The notes beneath the pieces were generated by a model. That model was given only the letters and a program-made list of their open reading frames with translations. It was not told the origin of the DNA and made no database searches. Both the position numbers and the translations under genes were made by a program. DNA of 11,232 nucleotides from Candidatus Wukongarchaeum yapensis (GTDB lineage Archaea; Asgardarchaeota; Wukongarchaeia; Wukongarchaeales; Wukongarchaeaceae). Where the stretch lies: positions 1 through 11,232 of the forward strand of contig JAEOSI010000056.1 of assembly GCA_016840425.1 (NCBI GenBank). Reading direction: 5' to 3'. Of the stretch, positions 1 to 10,990 are shown piece after piece. Positions within the stretch are counted from its first letter, which is position 1. Every line of letters starts with the position of its first letter.

Positions 1-853
1 AGAAGTATCTAAAACTCCCCTTCAAGTTAAAAGTTAGGTGGAAAGGACAGAACAGGGGGAAGGAAAGCAAGGTCGCTTAGAAATACGTTATGATAACCTC
101 TCAAGGCGATGGTATGCCTATATGCCAGTGGAGGTAAAACCCCTACATCAACCAAAAGGAGACAAAAAGAAGAGGGCGTACGTTGACTTGGGGATCATAA
201 ACATCATAACCAGCTGGATAGAAGAAGAAAAAGGGCCAGAAATATATTCCGGGAGAAGCGCTTTAAGCGACTGGTGGTACTGGAATAGAAAAATAGGAGA
301 ACATCAAAGCATAATAGAGAGAAACGGAAAAACAAAAAGAACATCAAGACAACTAAAGAGATTGTTTAAGAAGAGGCAGAAAAGGTTTAGACACTTGATA
401 AACACGATAATAGCGAGATTTGTCAAAAACTGCTGGGAAAAAGGAGTGTCAGAAATCGTTATAGGAGACGTAACACACATAAGAGAAAACAGTAGAAAGA
501 AAGAGAAAAGGAGAAAAGCTAGCGCGATGATAAACAACTTTTGGTCTTTTAGATACATCTACGAAAGACTAAGAACAACGGCAGAAAACTGCGGAATAAA
601 GATGAAGAAAAAGGAGGAGAAATACACATCTAAGACATGCTCTCTTTGCGGGAAAATACATCGAAACGGTAGAAAGCATAGGGGACTATACGTTTGTAAA
701 ACACATAGAGTAACGATGAATGCAGATGTTAACGGTGTAGCGAACATAGCTAACCCGATATTCCCGAAGCCCTACTGGGATAGGGATAACTGGCTGGTGG
801 CACAGCCACTGCTCCACAAAACAAAAATAGGAGTAGGAACCCCACAACTTTAG
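1..853 (+). pseudogene. tnpB: TnpB RNA-guided nuclease, 5'-truncated by the window edge, apparent 1-nt frameshift near 56
   Basis: RuvC-I VDLG (D at 185), IVIGD at the RuvC-II position, EKYTSKTCSLC zinc finger with CKTH, RuvC-III NAD (D at 725). Frame 3 (3-56) reads KYLKLPFKLKVRWKGQNR and frame 2 continues EGKQGRLEIRYD, so the GTG at 38 is probably not the real start. Confidence 0.88.
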
Positions 854-916: not shown

Positions 917-1516
917 TTATTGTTGTTGTTGTTCTGCGGCTTCTACGTATTTTATGATCATTTTGCCGAGAAGTTCAAAGGCTCGTTCTACGTTTTCCCC
1001 TGTTTTTGCCGAGGTTTCTAGGTAGGGTATTTCGAAGCCGTAGGGGCGGGTTACTTCGGAAAGTTGTACTGCGTAGGATTGTCCATGTTCTGGTCTTAAA
1101 GTGCGGGGTACTTGGTTTCTTAGGTCTATTTTGTTTCCTGCGAGTATGAATGGTGTGACGCCTCGTCCGTTATTTTTCCATAGTTCGTTGATCCAGTTTG
1201 GGATGTCTTGGAAGCTGTCGGTGTTGGTGACATCGTACATAACGATGGCGCCTAAAGCGCCTTTATAGTAGCCTTCTCTTACAACTTGGAATCTTACTTG
1301 ACCTGCGAGGTCCCATACTTGGTATTTGCAGGTTATGGGGTTCTTGTTGGTTTTTATTTTTATTATTTTGACGCTGAAGTCCGCGCCGATGGTCATGAGG
1401 TATTGGCCTGTGAAGCCTTCGCCTATCCATCTTTTTCTGAGGGAGGTTTTTCCTACGGCACCGTCGCCTAAAAGCACGACTTTTACTAGCATGTCTACTT
1501 GTTCTTTTTCATACAT
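917..1516 (-). CDS. Rab-like small GTPase (Ras superfamily), Asgard type, 199 aa
   Basis: G1 GDGAVGKT, G2 MTIGADF, G3 WDLAGQ, G4 NKID, G5 ETSAK. RabF-like IGADF, KYQVW, RFQVVR, YYKGA, VMYDVT. No C-terminal Cys. GAGGG RBS upstream. Confidence 0.93.
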   Translation of the reverse strand: MYEKEQVDMLVKVVLLGDGAVGKTSLRKRWIGEGFTGQYLMTIGADFSVKIIKIKTNKNPITCKYQVWDLAGQVRFQVVREGYYKGALGAIVMYDVTNTDSFQDIPNWINELWKNNGRGVTPFILAGNKIDLRNQVPRTLRPEHGQSYAVQLSEVTRPYGFEIPYLETSAKTGENVERAFELLGKMIIKYVEAAEQQQQ

Positions 1517-1892
1517 TAATGAATCCCTCGTTTATCGCTTTTCTTTGCTTTTTTGGAGACTTGGAAATTTTTTGATTTTAAAAAAATTTGTTAAGGTTCA
1601 AGGTGAGTGTTATTTGGTTGATGCAGTTATGGTGTGTTTTCTTTTGGATTAGTTTTTATCAGATTATTTTGTTTTCTTACTTTAGTTTTTTATTTATTGT
1701 ATTGTAATGATAAATGATAAATTTTTCTTGTTTTTTTCTTCACTTTTTTTGGGTTTTTTATTTTTGGATAAGTGGCTGGATAGTGGGGAGAATATTTATT
1801 TGTATTTTTACTTTTTCTTTTAATTTGTATAGATTGTGTTTTTGTTGTTTTTATAGGTGTATGTTTTTGTTTTTTGTGGATGGTGTGTTTTT

Positions 1893-3089
1893 ATGGATGA
1901 GGAAAAGGTTATGGTTCTTGGGTCTAGGTTGGCTTCATTTAGAAGTTCTTTAGTGAGATCTTTGGAGGAAGCGGTTCCTAAAAATTTGCTTATAGGGGCC
2001 TTTAAGAGCGCTCAAGAGTTGGGTTTTTCGGAGGAAGCTGTTTTTATTAAGGAGATTTTTGATGATCTTAGCTGGGTTCCTGACCCAACTTTTGAGGAGA
2101 GAAAGGCGATTTCCTTAAAAATTGAGAGGTTTGTGGAAAGTTTTAGTGGGAAGTTGGAGGGTGTTATGAGAAGTGTTTTTGAGATCTCTTTTAAGAGTGC
2201 AGAGGCTTTAGAGATTGTGGAAAAACTGTTAGGGGGAGGAGGGGAAGGATTGAGGGTTTTACCGGAACTTTTGGGGAAAATAGGGTTTCACCTTAAAATT
2301 TTAGGTTTTCATGAAACGAGCGAGGAGGTCGCTGAACTGAAAGGGAGGATAGGTTATGGAGAAGAAGGGGATAAGCTGGCTTATTATTATCTTTTTGATT
2401 TTTTAAGACGGGTTCCTTTTGATATGTTGGGTCGGATTATCAGGAGGGCGGAGGATGGTGAGATAGAGTTTCCTCGAGGGATTGATTCTTGGCTTCTTTT
2501 AGGGCTTTTTCTTTCACGTTTAATGCATTTAAAGGGCGAGGAGGATTTCCCTTGGATCCTTTATAACGTATCGTTTACGGTTAAGTTGACGGAAAAAACA
2601 GGCTTTAGTGGGGAAGATTTTGGGAAAAACTTTGCCCGTTTAAGAGATATTCAGAAATCTTACAACACTTCAGGAAAAACCTTGCCTCGGGAAACTCCGT
2701 CTTCAGTAAGATCGGTTCTTCCTATGGTTACTAGGGATATTGAGAACTTTTACAAAAAACTTGAAAAAGATAAGCCGGATAAGAAGGCAGAAGCCTTAAT
2801 TTTAGGGGATAATTGCGGAAAAATGCTCGAAATTCTTAGAAGGCTCAAGGAAGGAAGAACTAGAGAAAACTTGGGAATGATACCCTTACTTTTAAAAGAT
2901 ACGATTAAGCTCATGGAATCCCTTAGGATCAGCCCAAGAATGATTGAGAAAATAGCGCTCTTAGAAAGATCGCTTGCCCCTCGCAAACCCCAGCTAGAGG
3001 CCTTTCTTACAAAGCATGAAGAGAGAGAAAGAATTTCTGAAGAAGTTTTTCAAATCTTTGCAAAAACTTTAGGCTTCCTTAAAATCTAA
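1893..3089 (+). CDS. Hypothetical soluble, probably all-alpha protein, about 398 aa
   Basis: Long E/K/L-rich ORF. Start moved from 1857 to ATG 1893 (GGTG 8 nt upstream; the extra N-terminal residues come from T-rich intergenic sequence). No motif recognised. Confidence 0.75.
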   Translation: MDEEKVMVLGSRLASFRSSLVRSLEEAVPKNLLIGAFKSAQELGFSEEAVFIKEIFDDLSWVPDPTFEERKAISLKIERFVESFSGKLEGVMRSVFEISFKSAEALEIVEKLLGGGGEGLRVLPELLGKIGFHLKILGFHETSEEVAELKGRIGYGEEGDKLAYYYLFDFLRRVPFDMLGRIIRRAEDGEIEFPRGIDSWLLLGLFLSRLMHLKGEEDFPWILYNVSFTVKLTEKTGFSGEDFGKNFARLRDIQKSYNTSGKTLPRETPSSVRSVLPMVTRDIENFYKKLEKDKPDKKAEALILGDNCGKMLEILRRLKEGRTRENLGMIPLLLKDTIKLMESLRISPRMIEKIALLERSLAPRKPQLEAFLTKHEERERISEEVFQIFAKTLGFLKI

Positions 3090-9649: not shown

Positions 9650-10729
9650 ATGGGCGAGATCAGAGTAGCTATCTCCGGTATAGGAGGATGCGGATCCGCC
9701 ATCGTACAAGGAATATACTATTACCAAAACGCGAAAGAAGATGAGTTCGTTCCAGGGCTCATGCACGTAAAGTTTGGAGATTATCATATAAGAGACGTAA
9801 AGTTTGTCGCTGCCTTTGATGTTAACAAGGAGAAAATAGGGAAGGACTTAAGCGAAGCGATTTTTGCAGAACCTTGCTACATGGCAAAGATCATAGAAGT
9901 ACCCCATTTAGGAGTTAAAGTATTACCCGCGCCCATTTTAGACGGGGTAGCCCCTCATATGGTGGAAGAGTTTCGGTGCTATAACCCTGAAGAAATGGAG
10001 CCTGTAAACGTAGCAGAAGAGTTGAAGAAAGCTAAAGCAGACATCTTAGTAAATCTTATCCCTGTAGGGAGCGCGGAAGCTACAAGGATATATGCCGAAG
10101 CCTGTCTTGAGGCAGGTTGTGCTTTCATAAACTGTATACCGGAGTTTATAGCAAGCGATGAAACTTGGGCGAAAAGGTTCGAAAAAGCAGGTTTACCTAT
10201 AGCAGGAGACGATATTAAAAGTCAGCTTGGGGCTACCATACTTCACAGGACTATTGCTGATTTGATGCGGGCAAGAGGTCTTATCATAGAGGAGACGTAT
10301 CAGTTAAACATTGGTGGGGATTCAGACTTTCTCAACATGACTGTGGAGGAGAGGTTGTCTTCTAAACGGATCTCAAAAACAGAGGCTGTAACCTCCCTAA
10401 TAGGCAAAGAAATACCCACAAGGATAGGCCCATCAGACTACGTTCCCTTCCTTGGAGACCAAAAAATCTGTTACATTTACGCAAGGGGAAGAAAATTTGG
10501 AGACAGACCCGTAAGAATAGATCTCAAATTGAGCGTTGAAGACTCGCCAAACAGCGCTGGGGTTCAAATAGACGCCATTCGGGCTACAAAGATAGCGCTG
10601 GATCGGGGTGTTTCAGGCGCTCTTACAAGTATAAGCGCTTACTCCTTCAAGCACCCTCCCATTCAAGTTCCAGACCACGTAGCAAGACAGTGGGTTGAAG
10701 AATTTATAGAAGGAAAAAGAGAACGGTGA
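9650..10729 (+). CDS. ino1: myo-inositol-1-phosphate synthase, 359 aa
   Basis: IRVAISGIGGCGSAIVQG Rossmann motif, VAAFDV, GDDIKSQLGAT, QLNIGGDSDFLNM, SKRISKT, DQKICY, VEDSPNSAG, FKHPP. Confidence 0.95.
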   Translation: MGEIRVAISGIGGCGSAIVQGIYYYQNAKEDEFVPGLMHVKFGDYHIRDVKFVAAFDVNKEKIGKDLSEAIFAEPCYMAKIIEVPHLGVKVLPAPILDGVAPHMVEEFRCYNPEEMEPVNVAEELKKAKADILVNLIPVGSAEATRIYAEACLEAGCAFINCIPEFIASDETWAKRFEKAGLPIAGDDIKSQLGATILHRTIADLMRARGLIIEETYQLNIGGDSDFLNMTVEERLSSKRISKTEAVTSLIGKEIPTRIGPSDYVPFLGDQKICYIYARGRKFGDRPVRIDLKLSVEDSPNSAGVQIDAIRATKIALDRGVSGALTSISAYSFKHPPIQVPDHVARQWVEEFIEGKRER

Positions 10730-10906
10730 ACTATCCCTCAATTTGGAAAGGGGCTTCCTCCCTCGCGCTCTGAAACGCTAACGGGTCTCCTTTCGGAGCG
10801 ACGTACTCTGGGGAGGTTTTTGGACTGGTTCACTTCCCTTTTTTGTTTGTGCCACAGACAAAGGACAGCCCTGCTCTTAAGCATAGAGCCTAAGAGCCTG
10901 TTCCTT
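10710..10906 (-). ncRNA. Predicted stand-alone omegaRNA (about 180-nt scaffold plus guide reading into ino1)
   Basis: 15-bp bulged 5' stem (10861-10906), GTGAAC (10827-10832) complementary to the terminal GTTCAC, CCTCCC/GGGAGG stem, CTCC-GAAA-GGAG tetraloop (10787-10798), TATA about 25 nt upstream. Confidence 0.6.
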
Positions 10907-10990
10907 CTGACATTTAATAGTTCAAAACTCTATTTAAGCTCCCCGCAATTTATCCCTCTCTTATGAAAGGAGTCTTCTTATGGCATAAAA
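10726..10990 (-). mobile_element. 265-bp protein-less IS200/IS605-family mini-element (second family)
   Basis: Minus strand: target TTAT (10991-10994), AAGA (10973-10976) plus bulged hairpin (10956-10972), and right end GAAG-CCCCTTTCCAAATTGAGGG-ATAGTTCAC. The two ends resemble each other (CCTTTC...GAGGGATA). Removing the element restores the ino1 end as CGA-TAA. Confidence 0.82.
10931..10937 (-). promoter_or_regulatory. TATA box inside the mini-element, pointing at the omegaRNA-like region
   Basis: TTAAATA on the minus strand, 24 nt upstream of the first paired base of the 5' stem. No good BRE seen. Confidence 0.45.

Follow-up and report, generated by a model that had tools for sequence, protein, structure and literature searches.

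Palindrome-associated transposable elements (PATEs), whose name comes from Haloquadratum (Dyall-Smith, 2011, PMC3119063), "often encode omegaRNAs" that need TnpB in trans in Geobacillus stearothermophilus, and a role of TnpB in homing and retention has been shown (Meers et al., 2023, PMC10055086). Mobilised stand-alone omegaRNAs also exist and work in trans, as Altae-Tran et al. (2021) are summarised by Altae-Tran et al. (2023, PMC10691335). The element studied here lies at 10984-10726 on the minus strand of a window of 11,232 nt, which is the whole stretch of DNA analysed (contig JAEOSI010000056.1, assembly GCA_016840425.1, of the Asgard archaeon Candidatus Wukongarchaeum yapensis). Its kind is already published in the form of stand-alone omegaRNAs and of omegaRNA-encoding PATEs (Altae-Tran et al., 2021, 2023; Meers et al., 2023). 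With a probability that we put at about 65%, it is a gene-less, PATE-like, non-autonomous deletion derivative that is likely retained in this Asgard genome by TnpB acting in trans. The parts of this reading that the analysis carries directly are the descent of the element, its boundaries, an empty allele, covarying helices, the presence of intact related TnpBs and the match of the guide.

The element is 259 bp long and contains no protein-coding gene. Its first base, G10984, lies directly 3' of a TTAT at 10988-10985 on the minus strand. An empty allele was found on a contig of the ENA database (L071), where GAGAACG is joined to ATAAAAA and where the myo-inositol-1-phosphate synthase (MIPS) protein is 92% identical to that of the window. 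Deletion of 10726-10984 from the window gives the same reading as L071 across the joint. The existence of this allele proves the boundaries of the element and, the joint being precise, gives it a length of 259 bp and an insertion point 3' of TTAT with no duplication of the target, the signature of IS200/IS605 elements. A fixed tetra- or pentanucleotide 5' of the insertion was accordingly accompanied by the absence of target duplication and of inverted terminal repeats, and TTAT or TTTTAT ends the left flank in all copies of the family. In L071 the synthase gene is followed, 64 nt apart, by an arginase-family gene. In addition, metagenome contigs from three studies have 10730 joined to 11065, with 77 letters instead of 334 (about 257 nt lacking), and the element is present on further contigs from those same metagenome runs; the site thus occurs with or without the element among close relatives. 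The sequence-only reading had described a protein-less mini-transposon at 10726-10990 that had kept its ends. Its lack of a protein was borne out, its ends are of the IS200/IS605 type, with insertion 3' of TTAT without duplication, and all the motifs listed in that reading are present on the minus strand. The proposed extent was correct for 10726-10984, positions 10985-10990 being the target motif plus two bases. The features of the element exceed chance (z = -2.97 for the RNA fold). They are the following, on the minus strand unless stated otherwise:

10985..10988, minus: target or transposon-adjacent motif (TAM) TTAT, inside the T-rich ATTTTTAT, from family left flanks and L071.
10909..10984, minus: left end, 76-84% identical to the left ends of the tnpB-bearing elements C265, C228, C216 and C172.
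10976-10973, minus: foot tetranucleotide AAGA, directly 5' of a short weak hairpin at 10970-10955.
Within 10909..10984, minus: GATAAATTGCGG, between that hairpin and the TATA-like box.
10937-10931, minus: TATA-like box TTAAATA, in the left end.
10920-10912, minus: second A/T box, in the left end.
10898..10911, minus: deletion junction of the left end to the last ~57 tnpB codons, from alignment to full-length elements.
10873..10897, minus: helix 1, a 10-bp stem-loop (GCUCUUAGGC / GCUUAAGAGC) that contains GCTCTTA/TAAGAGC, from the minimum free energy fold; 91-97% paired, with compensatory pairs.
10822..10871, minus: helix 2, GGGCUG (10871-10866) with CAGUCC (10827-10822), conserved and covarying.
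10865-10835, minus: extra hairpin of ~31 nt in the loop of helix 2, 81.6% paired against 23-55% in slid controls.
10833-10828, minus: GUGAAC in the loop of helix 2, the complement of GTTCAC at the terminus (10731-10726).
10757..10816, minus: helix 3, CCUCCC (10816-10811) with GGGAGG (10762-10757), enclosing helix 4.
10798-10787, minus: helix 4, CUCC-GAAA-GGAG, inside helix 3.
10726..10757, minus: right end; AGTTCAC closes every copy, and beyond it the flanks diverge.
10757-10754, minus: foot GAAG, in the right end.
10753-10749 with 10738-10735, minus: helix 5, the right-end hairpin (CCCCU with AGGG), weak in the window copy.
Ending at 10726, minus: the terminal TAGTTCAC, with cleavage after C10726.
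10706..10725, minus: predicted guide, the flank beyond the right end, antisense to the last MIPS codons.
9650..10729, plus: MIPS host gene (Pfam PF01658), with its stop TGA at 10727-10729.

No open reading frame (ORF) longer than 48 codons was found within 10726-10984. The one of 48 codons (10738-10884, minus strand) begins with MLKSRA..., at a methionine inside the TnpB tail. It has the look of a relic rather than of a gene, because the TnpB-tail ORF of a related gene-less subfamily, M, stops after about 13 codons. Rfam returned no family for the element at gathering or at permissive thresholds.

The genome that holds the window (G000) is a metagenome-assembled genome of 2.16 Mb in 277 contigs, 92% complete, with 31 TnpB-domain matches and one intact Y1 tnpA. 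The left ~76 nt of the element match the left ends of the tnpB-only elements C265, C228, C216 and C172, and its last ~175 nt match the tnpB 3' ends plus right ends of the same four. Both ends hence have homologues in a protein-coding IS200/IS605 element, whose TnpB was recognised via PF07282. Positions 10902-10726 align by tblastn to TnpB residues 343-392. About 1.04 kb of tnpB was lost and the last ~57 codons survive. Judged by these alignments, the window element arose by internal deletion from a tnpB-only IS200/IS605 element. The identical junction recurs in a second copy, at a different locus on a metagenome contig (L063, 78% identical), and the window element is the sole copy of this C type in G000. 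Two further gene-less subfamilies were recognised: M, with five full and several partial copies in G000 plus a single full one in G001, the sister genome (labelled Candidatus Hodarchaeota), and D, which occurs in metagenomes. Asgard genomes hold at least four independent deletions (C7/L063, L091, L093 and L076), not counting types M and D. Each deletion takes away almost the whole of tnpB and ends 10-25 nt 5' of helix 1, none cuts helix 1 and the right end is always spared.

The ~31-nt hairpin in helix 2 is common to all gene-less copies and absent from the tnpB-bearing copies of G000. The possibility that it is specific to gene-less elements was ruled out when a covariance model search of 151 Asgard genomes yielded L074 and L075, from another Asgard genus, which have a full tnpB and keep both this hairpin and the GAAA hairpin. 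By this resemblance the true parent type of the window element is the hairpin-bearing one, P3. The sequence-only reading had proposed a search of the genome for a tnpB-bearing parent: tnpB-bearing relatives, two of them intact, do stand in the same genome, and the P3 parent type with a full tnpB came from another genus alone.

A covariance model built from tnpB-bearing copies scores 10726-10915 at 129 bits (E ~1e-33), and the sequence corresponds to the 3' end of tnpB together with the right end of a TnpB element. The structure of the tnpB-bearing alignment consists of five nested helices plus a GUGAAC/GUUCAC pseudoknot, and all five helices are intact in the window copy. An alignment of all copies with MAFFT misplaced the centre of the M subfamily, and model-based alignments were used instead. 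Because such alignments lean towards structure, slid controls are the fair comparison. In the 15 tnpB-bearing copies 94.3% of the cells are in standard pairs (42-51% when slid) and 14 pairs are changed on both sides (2-4 when slid). The corresponding values were 88.4% against 41-57%, with 10 compensatory pairs against 1-4, for 10 gene-less copies, and 89.7% against 43-58%, with 11 against 2-4, for 13 gene-less copies. Helix 5 covaries across the family (CCCCC/GGGGG, CUCCC/GGGAG, CCCUC/GAGGG), and two compensatory pairs (C-G/U-A swaps) in the region of helices 3 and 4 separate subfamilies. The secondary structure is thus conserved with covariation, and the compensatory changes among gene-less copies are those that a covariance analysis of the stems was to reveal. 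The element retains the complete omegaRNA scaffold of the tnpB-bearing family.

Not every proposed pairing was conserved. From the 15-bp bulged stem originally described, the inner part (the 10-bp hairpin) is conserved, but the outer CAG/CTG and AAGGA/TCCTT are not kept in relatives, and their pairing would be at the expense of helix 2 (GGGCTG/CAGTCC), which is conserved and covaries. A GCG/CGC pair within helix 3 of the window copy was likewise dropped, as it is not conserved. A C-UGU-G loop motif was observed in a hairpin at the Shine-Dalgarno-like GAGGTCTGTGRCC before the tnpB start (left ends, e.g., L007:~395-425), and the same motif lies in the extra hairpin of helix 2 (window 10858-10848, GUCUGUGGC); a duplication or a common binding motif may account for it.

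The guide taken from the flank was also compared with the vacant site. In the L071 allele TTAT precedes a stretch that matches the right flank of the element at 26/26 positions, so that the guide outside the right end matches a vacant site flanked by the TAM. The predicted target of the window guide is TTAT-CGTTCTCTTTTTCCTT. When the 16 nt past the right end of the 12 copies in G000 were compared with the genome, no second TTAT-adjacent match was found at ≤2 mismatches, and each of the 12 guides matches only the DNA beside its own right end. The idea of the sequence-only reading that a genome-wide set of copies acts as a dispersed guide array found no support here (0/12). Since the guide matches only the vacant site, homing or retention by a trans-acting TnpB is the best reading.

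Related tnpB genes are open in C265 (399 aa) and C172 (386 aa) and broken in C228 and C216; the cognate TnpB family lies on these contigs and, as had been supposed, is not that of the window's own tnpB. The core of the sequence-only reading stands: the element is in essence a transposon without genes, made up of ends, promoter and omegaRNA, and its TnpB partner is encoded elsewhere. An alignment of the C265 TnpB (L007:425-1621) with 45 homologues (46 sequences) showed that D152, E300 (in NEAYTS, before the zinc finger), N336 and the four zinc-finger cysteines are invariant and that D334 is nearly so. Gly249 is invariant in the clade at the canonical position of the RuvC-II Glu. A rearranged RuvC-II layout has been described and predicted to be active (Altae-Tran et al., 2023, PMC10691335), and the partner TnpB clade appears to have such a rearranged catalytic layout and is predicted to be active. 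The clade is widespread, with homologues named from Hodarchaeota, Heimdallarchaeota, Promethearchaeota, Odinarchaeia, Bathyarchaeia and Archaeoglobus. The TnpB of the window itself (38-853, plus strand, OrfB_IS605 and TNB domains) is a different one, with about 29% identity to the partner clade across about 110 residues. Adjoining this TnpB of the contig start, a Ras/Rab-like small GTPase is encoded at 917-1516 (minus strand), which fits an Asgard genome. The 410-aa ORF at 1857-3089 (plus strand), in the region that the sequence-only reading called element 2, matched nothing in Pfam, even at E = 1, and showed no resemblance to the TnpB clade in a profile comparison.

Mobilisation would depend on a transposase supplied from elsewhere. 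The only intact Y1 tnpA of G000, on C70 (PF01797, 139 bits), stands beside a different tnpB (L025, C70:7590-8568). The left end of that element reads AAGAAAG-hairpin-GATGAATT, with foot AAAG and flank TTAC, and has a plan similar to that of the window family (AAGAAGA-hairpin-GATGAATT, foot AAGA, flank TTAT). The rule by which AAGA predicts TTxT fits both pairs, AAAG with TTAC and AAGA with TTAT. These foot and target pairs agree with the pairing rule of IS608, but the C70 TnpA is no more than a candidate for recognising the window element. Subterminal hairpins are present and covary in the family (helix 5), although they are weak in the window copy, whereas relatives have strong ones (the right end of L059 has -10.1 kcal/mol, z -3.7).

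The following course of events is proposed, in which transcription, TnpB loading, cleavage and present-day mobility are what we infer. The deletion brought the left end, with the promoter-like TATA box of tnpB, to about 10 nt from the 5' side of the complete omegaRNA scaffold. Transcription would start about 25 nt past TTAAATA, traverse the scaffold and continue beyond the right end, so that the 3' tail of the RNA would be neighbouring host DNA (CGTTCTCTTTTTCC...). That the element is self-expressing, as had been suggested, is plausible from the conserved TATA-like TTAAATA and its spacing. TnpB from a full-length sister element may then bind the RNA in trans, and the complex would recognise and cut the sole matching site, the vacant allele TTAT-CGTTCTC..., whether this arises from TnpA excision or on element-free copies of the genome. 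Homologous repair off an occupied copy would restore the mini-element. Moves to new TTAT sites would need Y1 TnpA in trans.

Several observations weigh against this course of events. The only intact TnpBs in the assembly belong to subfamily P1, which shares about 71-72% identity with the TnpBs of the hairpin type (P3) and whose own scaffold lacks the 31-nt hairpin; compatibility would therefore have to be assumed, and in G000 the element may be an orphan. A P3 type with intact tnpB was not found in the G000 assembly, which is 92% complete. The covariance alignments were fitted to the model structure, which favours pairing. The gene-less copies are 75-89% identical to each other, and for that reason there is no sign of recent bursts. 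As single-stranded DNA, the left-end hairpin has -2.4 kcal/mol (z +0.65) and the right-end one -2.2, no better than shuffles; the earlier description of the element as mobile is doubtful for the window copy today. Finally, the C70 tnpA element targets TTAC and the window family TTAT. Some of these points would equally suit a window copy that is an inert fossil, once mobile but now neither transcribed nor loaded nor moved, and kept only since its position at a stop codon is harmless. The weak end hairpins, the absence of a P3 tnpB match from the assembly, the isolation of this copy as the only C-type one in the genome, a relic ORF that sister copies have not kept and a host protein unaltered by the insertion are all as such a fossil would have them. 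However, its five helices are intact at 129 bits against the tnpB-bearing model, its TATA-like box is intact and the site is polymorphic among close relatives, and we consider a fossil rather unlikely, though it deserves weight.

The two other explanations concern what the retained sequences are for. In one of them the gene-less copies would serve TnpB as a dispersed guide array against genomic or foreign targets, in regulation or defence. There are indeed several gene-less copies per genome with flanks all different, but none of the 12 guides has a further target in the genome within the threshold given above and the guide is set by the insertion site and not acquired, so that an array is very improbable. 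Just as hard to credit, or slightly more so, is the view that the retained 3' 175 nt are needed only as cis DNA for excision and integration by TnpA, with no RNA role. It draws on helix 5, which is the right-end hairpin and covaries, and on the D type, whose left- and right-end hairpins are alike, as in TnpA substrates. However, TnpA of IS608 requires just a subterminal hairpin and the cleavage site, and helices 1-3 lie 60-170 nt from the right end. Helices 1-4 are far from the right-end cleavage site, so that selection appears to have acted on the RNA and not on a TnpA substrate, and they match the 3' end of tnpB, the part that encodes omegaRNAs. G-U pairs are frequent at paired positions (e.g., U-G in 6/12 copies at one pair of helix 1), which fits RNA better than DNA, and the independent deletions never enter helix 1.

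The insertion stands exactly on the stop codon of its host gene. The TGA stop of MIPS (10727-10729, plus strand) is supplied by the last bases of the element, and the plus-strand ATAA at the target held the original TAA stop. The MIPS of relatives ends in ...CGA TAA and that of the window in ...CGG TGA, which leaves the protein unchanged. An exact-sequence look-up of the window MIPS protein returned no record. The arginase-family gene, convergent with MIPS, lies on the other side of the element. As a side observation, 6 of the 12 family copies in G000 abut the stop of a convergent ORF, for which the right-end TCAC supplies the TGA (window 10726-10729, C110:21100, C258:1564, C228:10278, C20:8095 and C216:3929); among these ORFs are MIPS, a radical-SAM gene and a lipoate-protein ligase. 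A stop of this sort is met at just 2.6-3.4% of TTAT/TTTTAT sites (binomial p ~1e-6), and survivorship of harmless insertions can explain part of the excess. In both genomes a full-length tnpB element sits at the final codon of a second, divergent MIPS paralogue with 43% identity and the C-terminus ...DFVAGRKER (G000 C216:3929; G001 C47:13435, L029). The G001 element was considered as an occupant of the same site as the mini-element and ruled out, that MIPS being just 43% identical; its locus is orthologous to the C216 paralogue, and the two elements were therefore inserted separately, at codons of the paralogues that correspond to each other. The equivalent site in both paralogues is ...R-stop, with CGA/AGA TAA AAA corresponding to TTTTTAT.

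A broader and distinctly speculative proposal, which we regard as improbable, is that a guide-only existence has evolved repeatedly and under selection among the TnpB transposons of Asgard archaea, such derivatives not being products of decay, and that the family is adapted to insertion at ATAA stops. If this were true, hyperparasites made of a promoter, an omegaRNA and ends would arise repeatedly and exploit TnpB homing, and the TCAC terminus would restore TGA and make each copy harmless to the host. Guides antisense to the 3' ends of genes (ino1, radical-SAM, lipoate ligase) would then leave room for a host regulatory or addiction-like effect.

What the locus offers is a well-documented natural example of a stand-alone TnpB guide-RNA element from the Asgard archaea, to which eukaryotes are more closely related than to any other prokaryotes. 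This example goes beyond the routine in the recurrent independent deletions, which retained the guide-RNA scaffold and not the nuclease gene, in the natural empty allele, which is exact and carries the predicted TAM and target, and in the stop-codon habit. It also gives a five-helix fold, backed by covariation, for a clade of archaeal TnpBs whose RuvC-II site is rearranged, and a test system (the C265, C172 or L074 TnpB plus the RNA plus a TTAT target) for trans-loading and for activity of the rearranged site. The current picture of OMEGA systems is unaltered.

Comparison with known systems places the element nearest to PATE-like elements, with which it shares the lack of an ORF, ends in common with the tnpB elements of the genome, a kept omegaRNA, a requirement for TnpB in trans and a presumed mobilisation by TnpA in trans. 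It differs from the Geobacillus PATEs in its Asgard host, in the rearranged RuvC-II of its partner TnpB (Gly249/Glu300), in the extra hairpin of helix 2, in a TATA-like box ~35 nt before the scaffold and in its position exactly on a host stop codon. Like stand-alone omegaRNAs, it lacks effector and transposase in a genome that holds effector-bearing loci; the host and the TnpB clade are different, a natural vacant allele matches the guide perfectly and its role in trans is predicted. With its IS1341-type (tnpB-only) parents C265, C172, C228, C216 and L074/L075 it shares ends, TTAT, helices and AGTTCAC, whereas ~1.04 kb of tnpB is missing from it and the last ~57 codons are a non-conserved relic. 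Miniature inverted-repeat transposable elements are also short, non-coding internal-deletion derivatives that need a transposase in trans. Unlike them, the window element has no terminal inverted repeats, makes no duplication and inserts strand-specifically at a tetranucleotide, and its interior is a functional-looking guide RNA and not filler.

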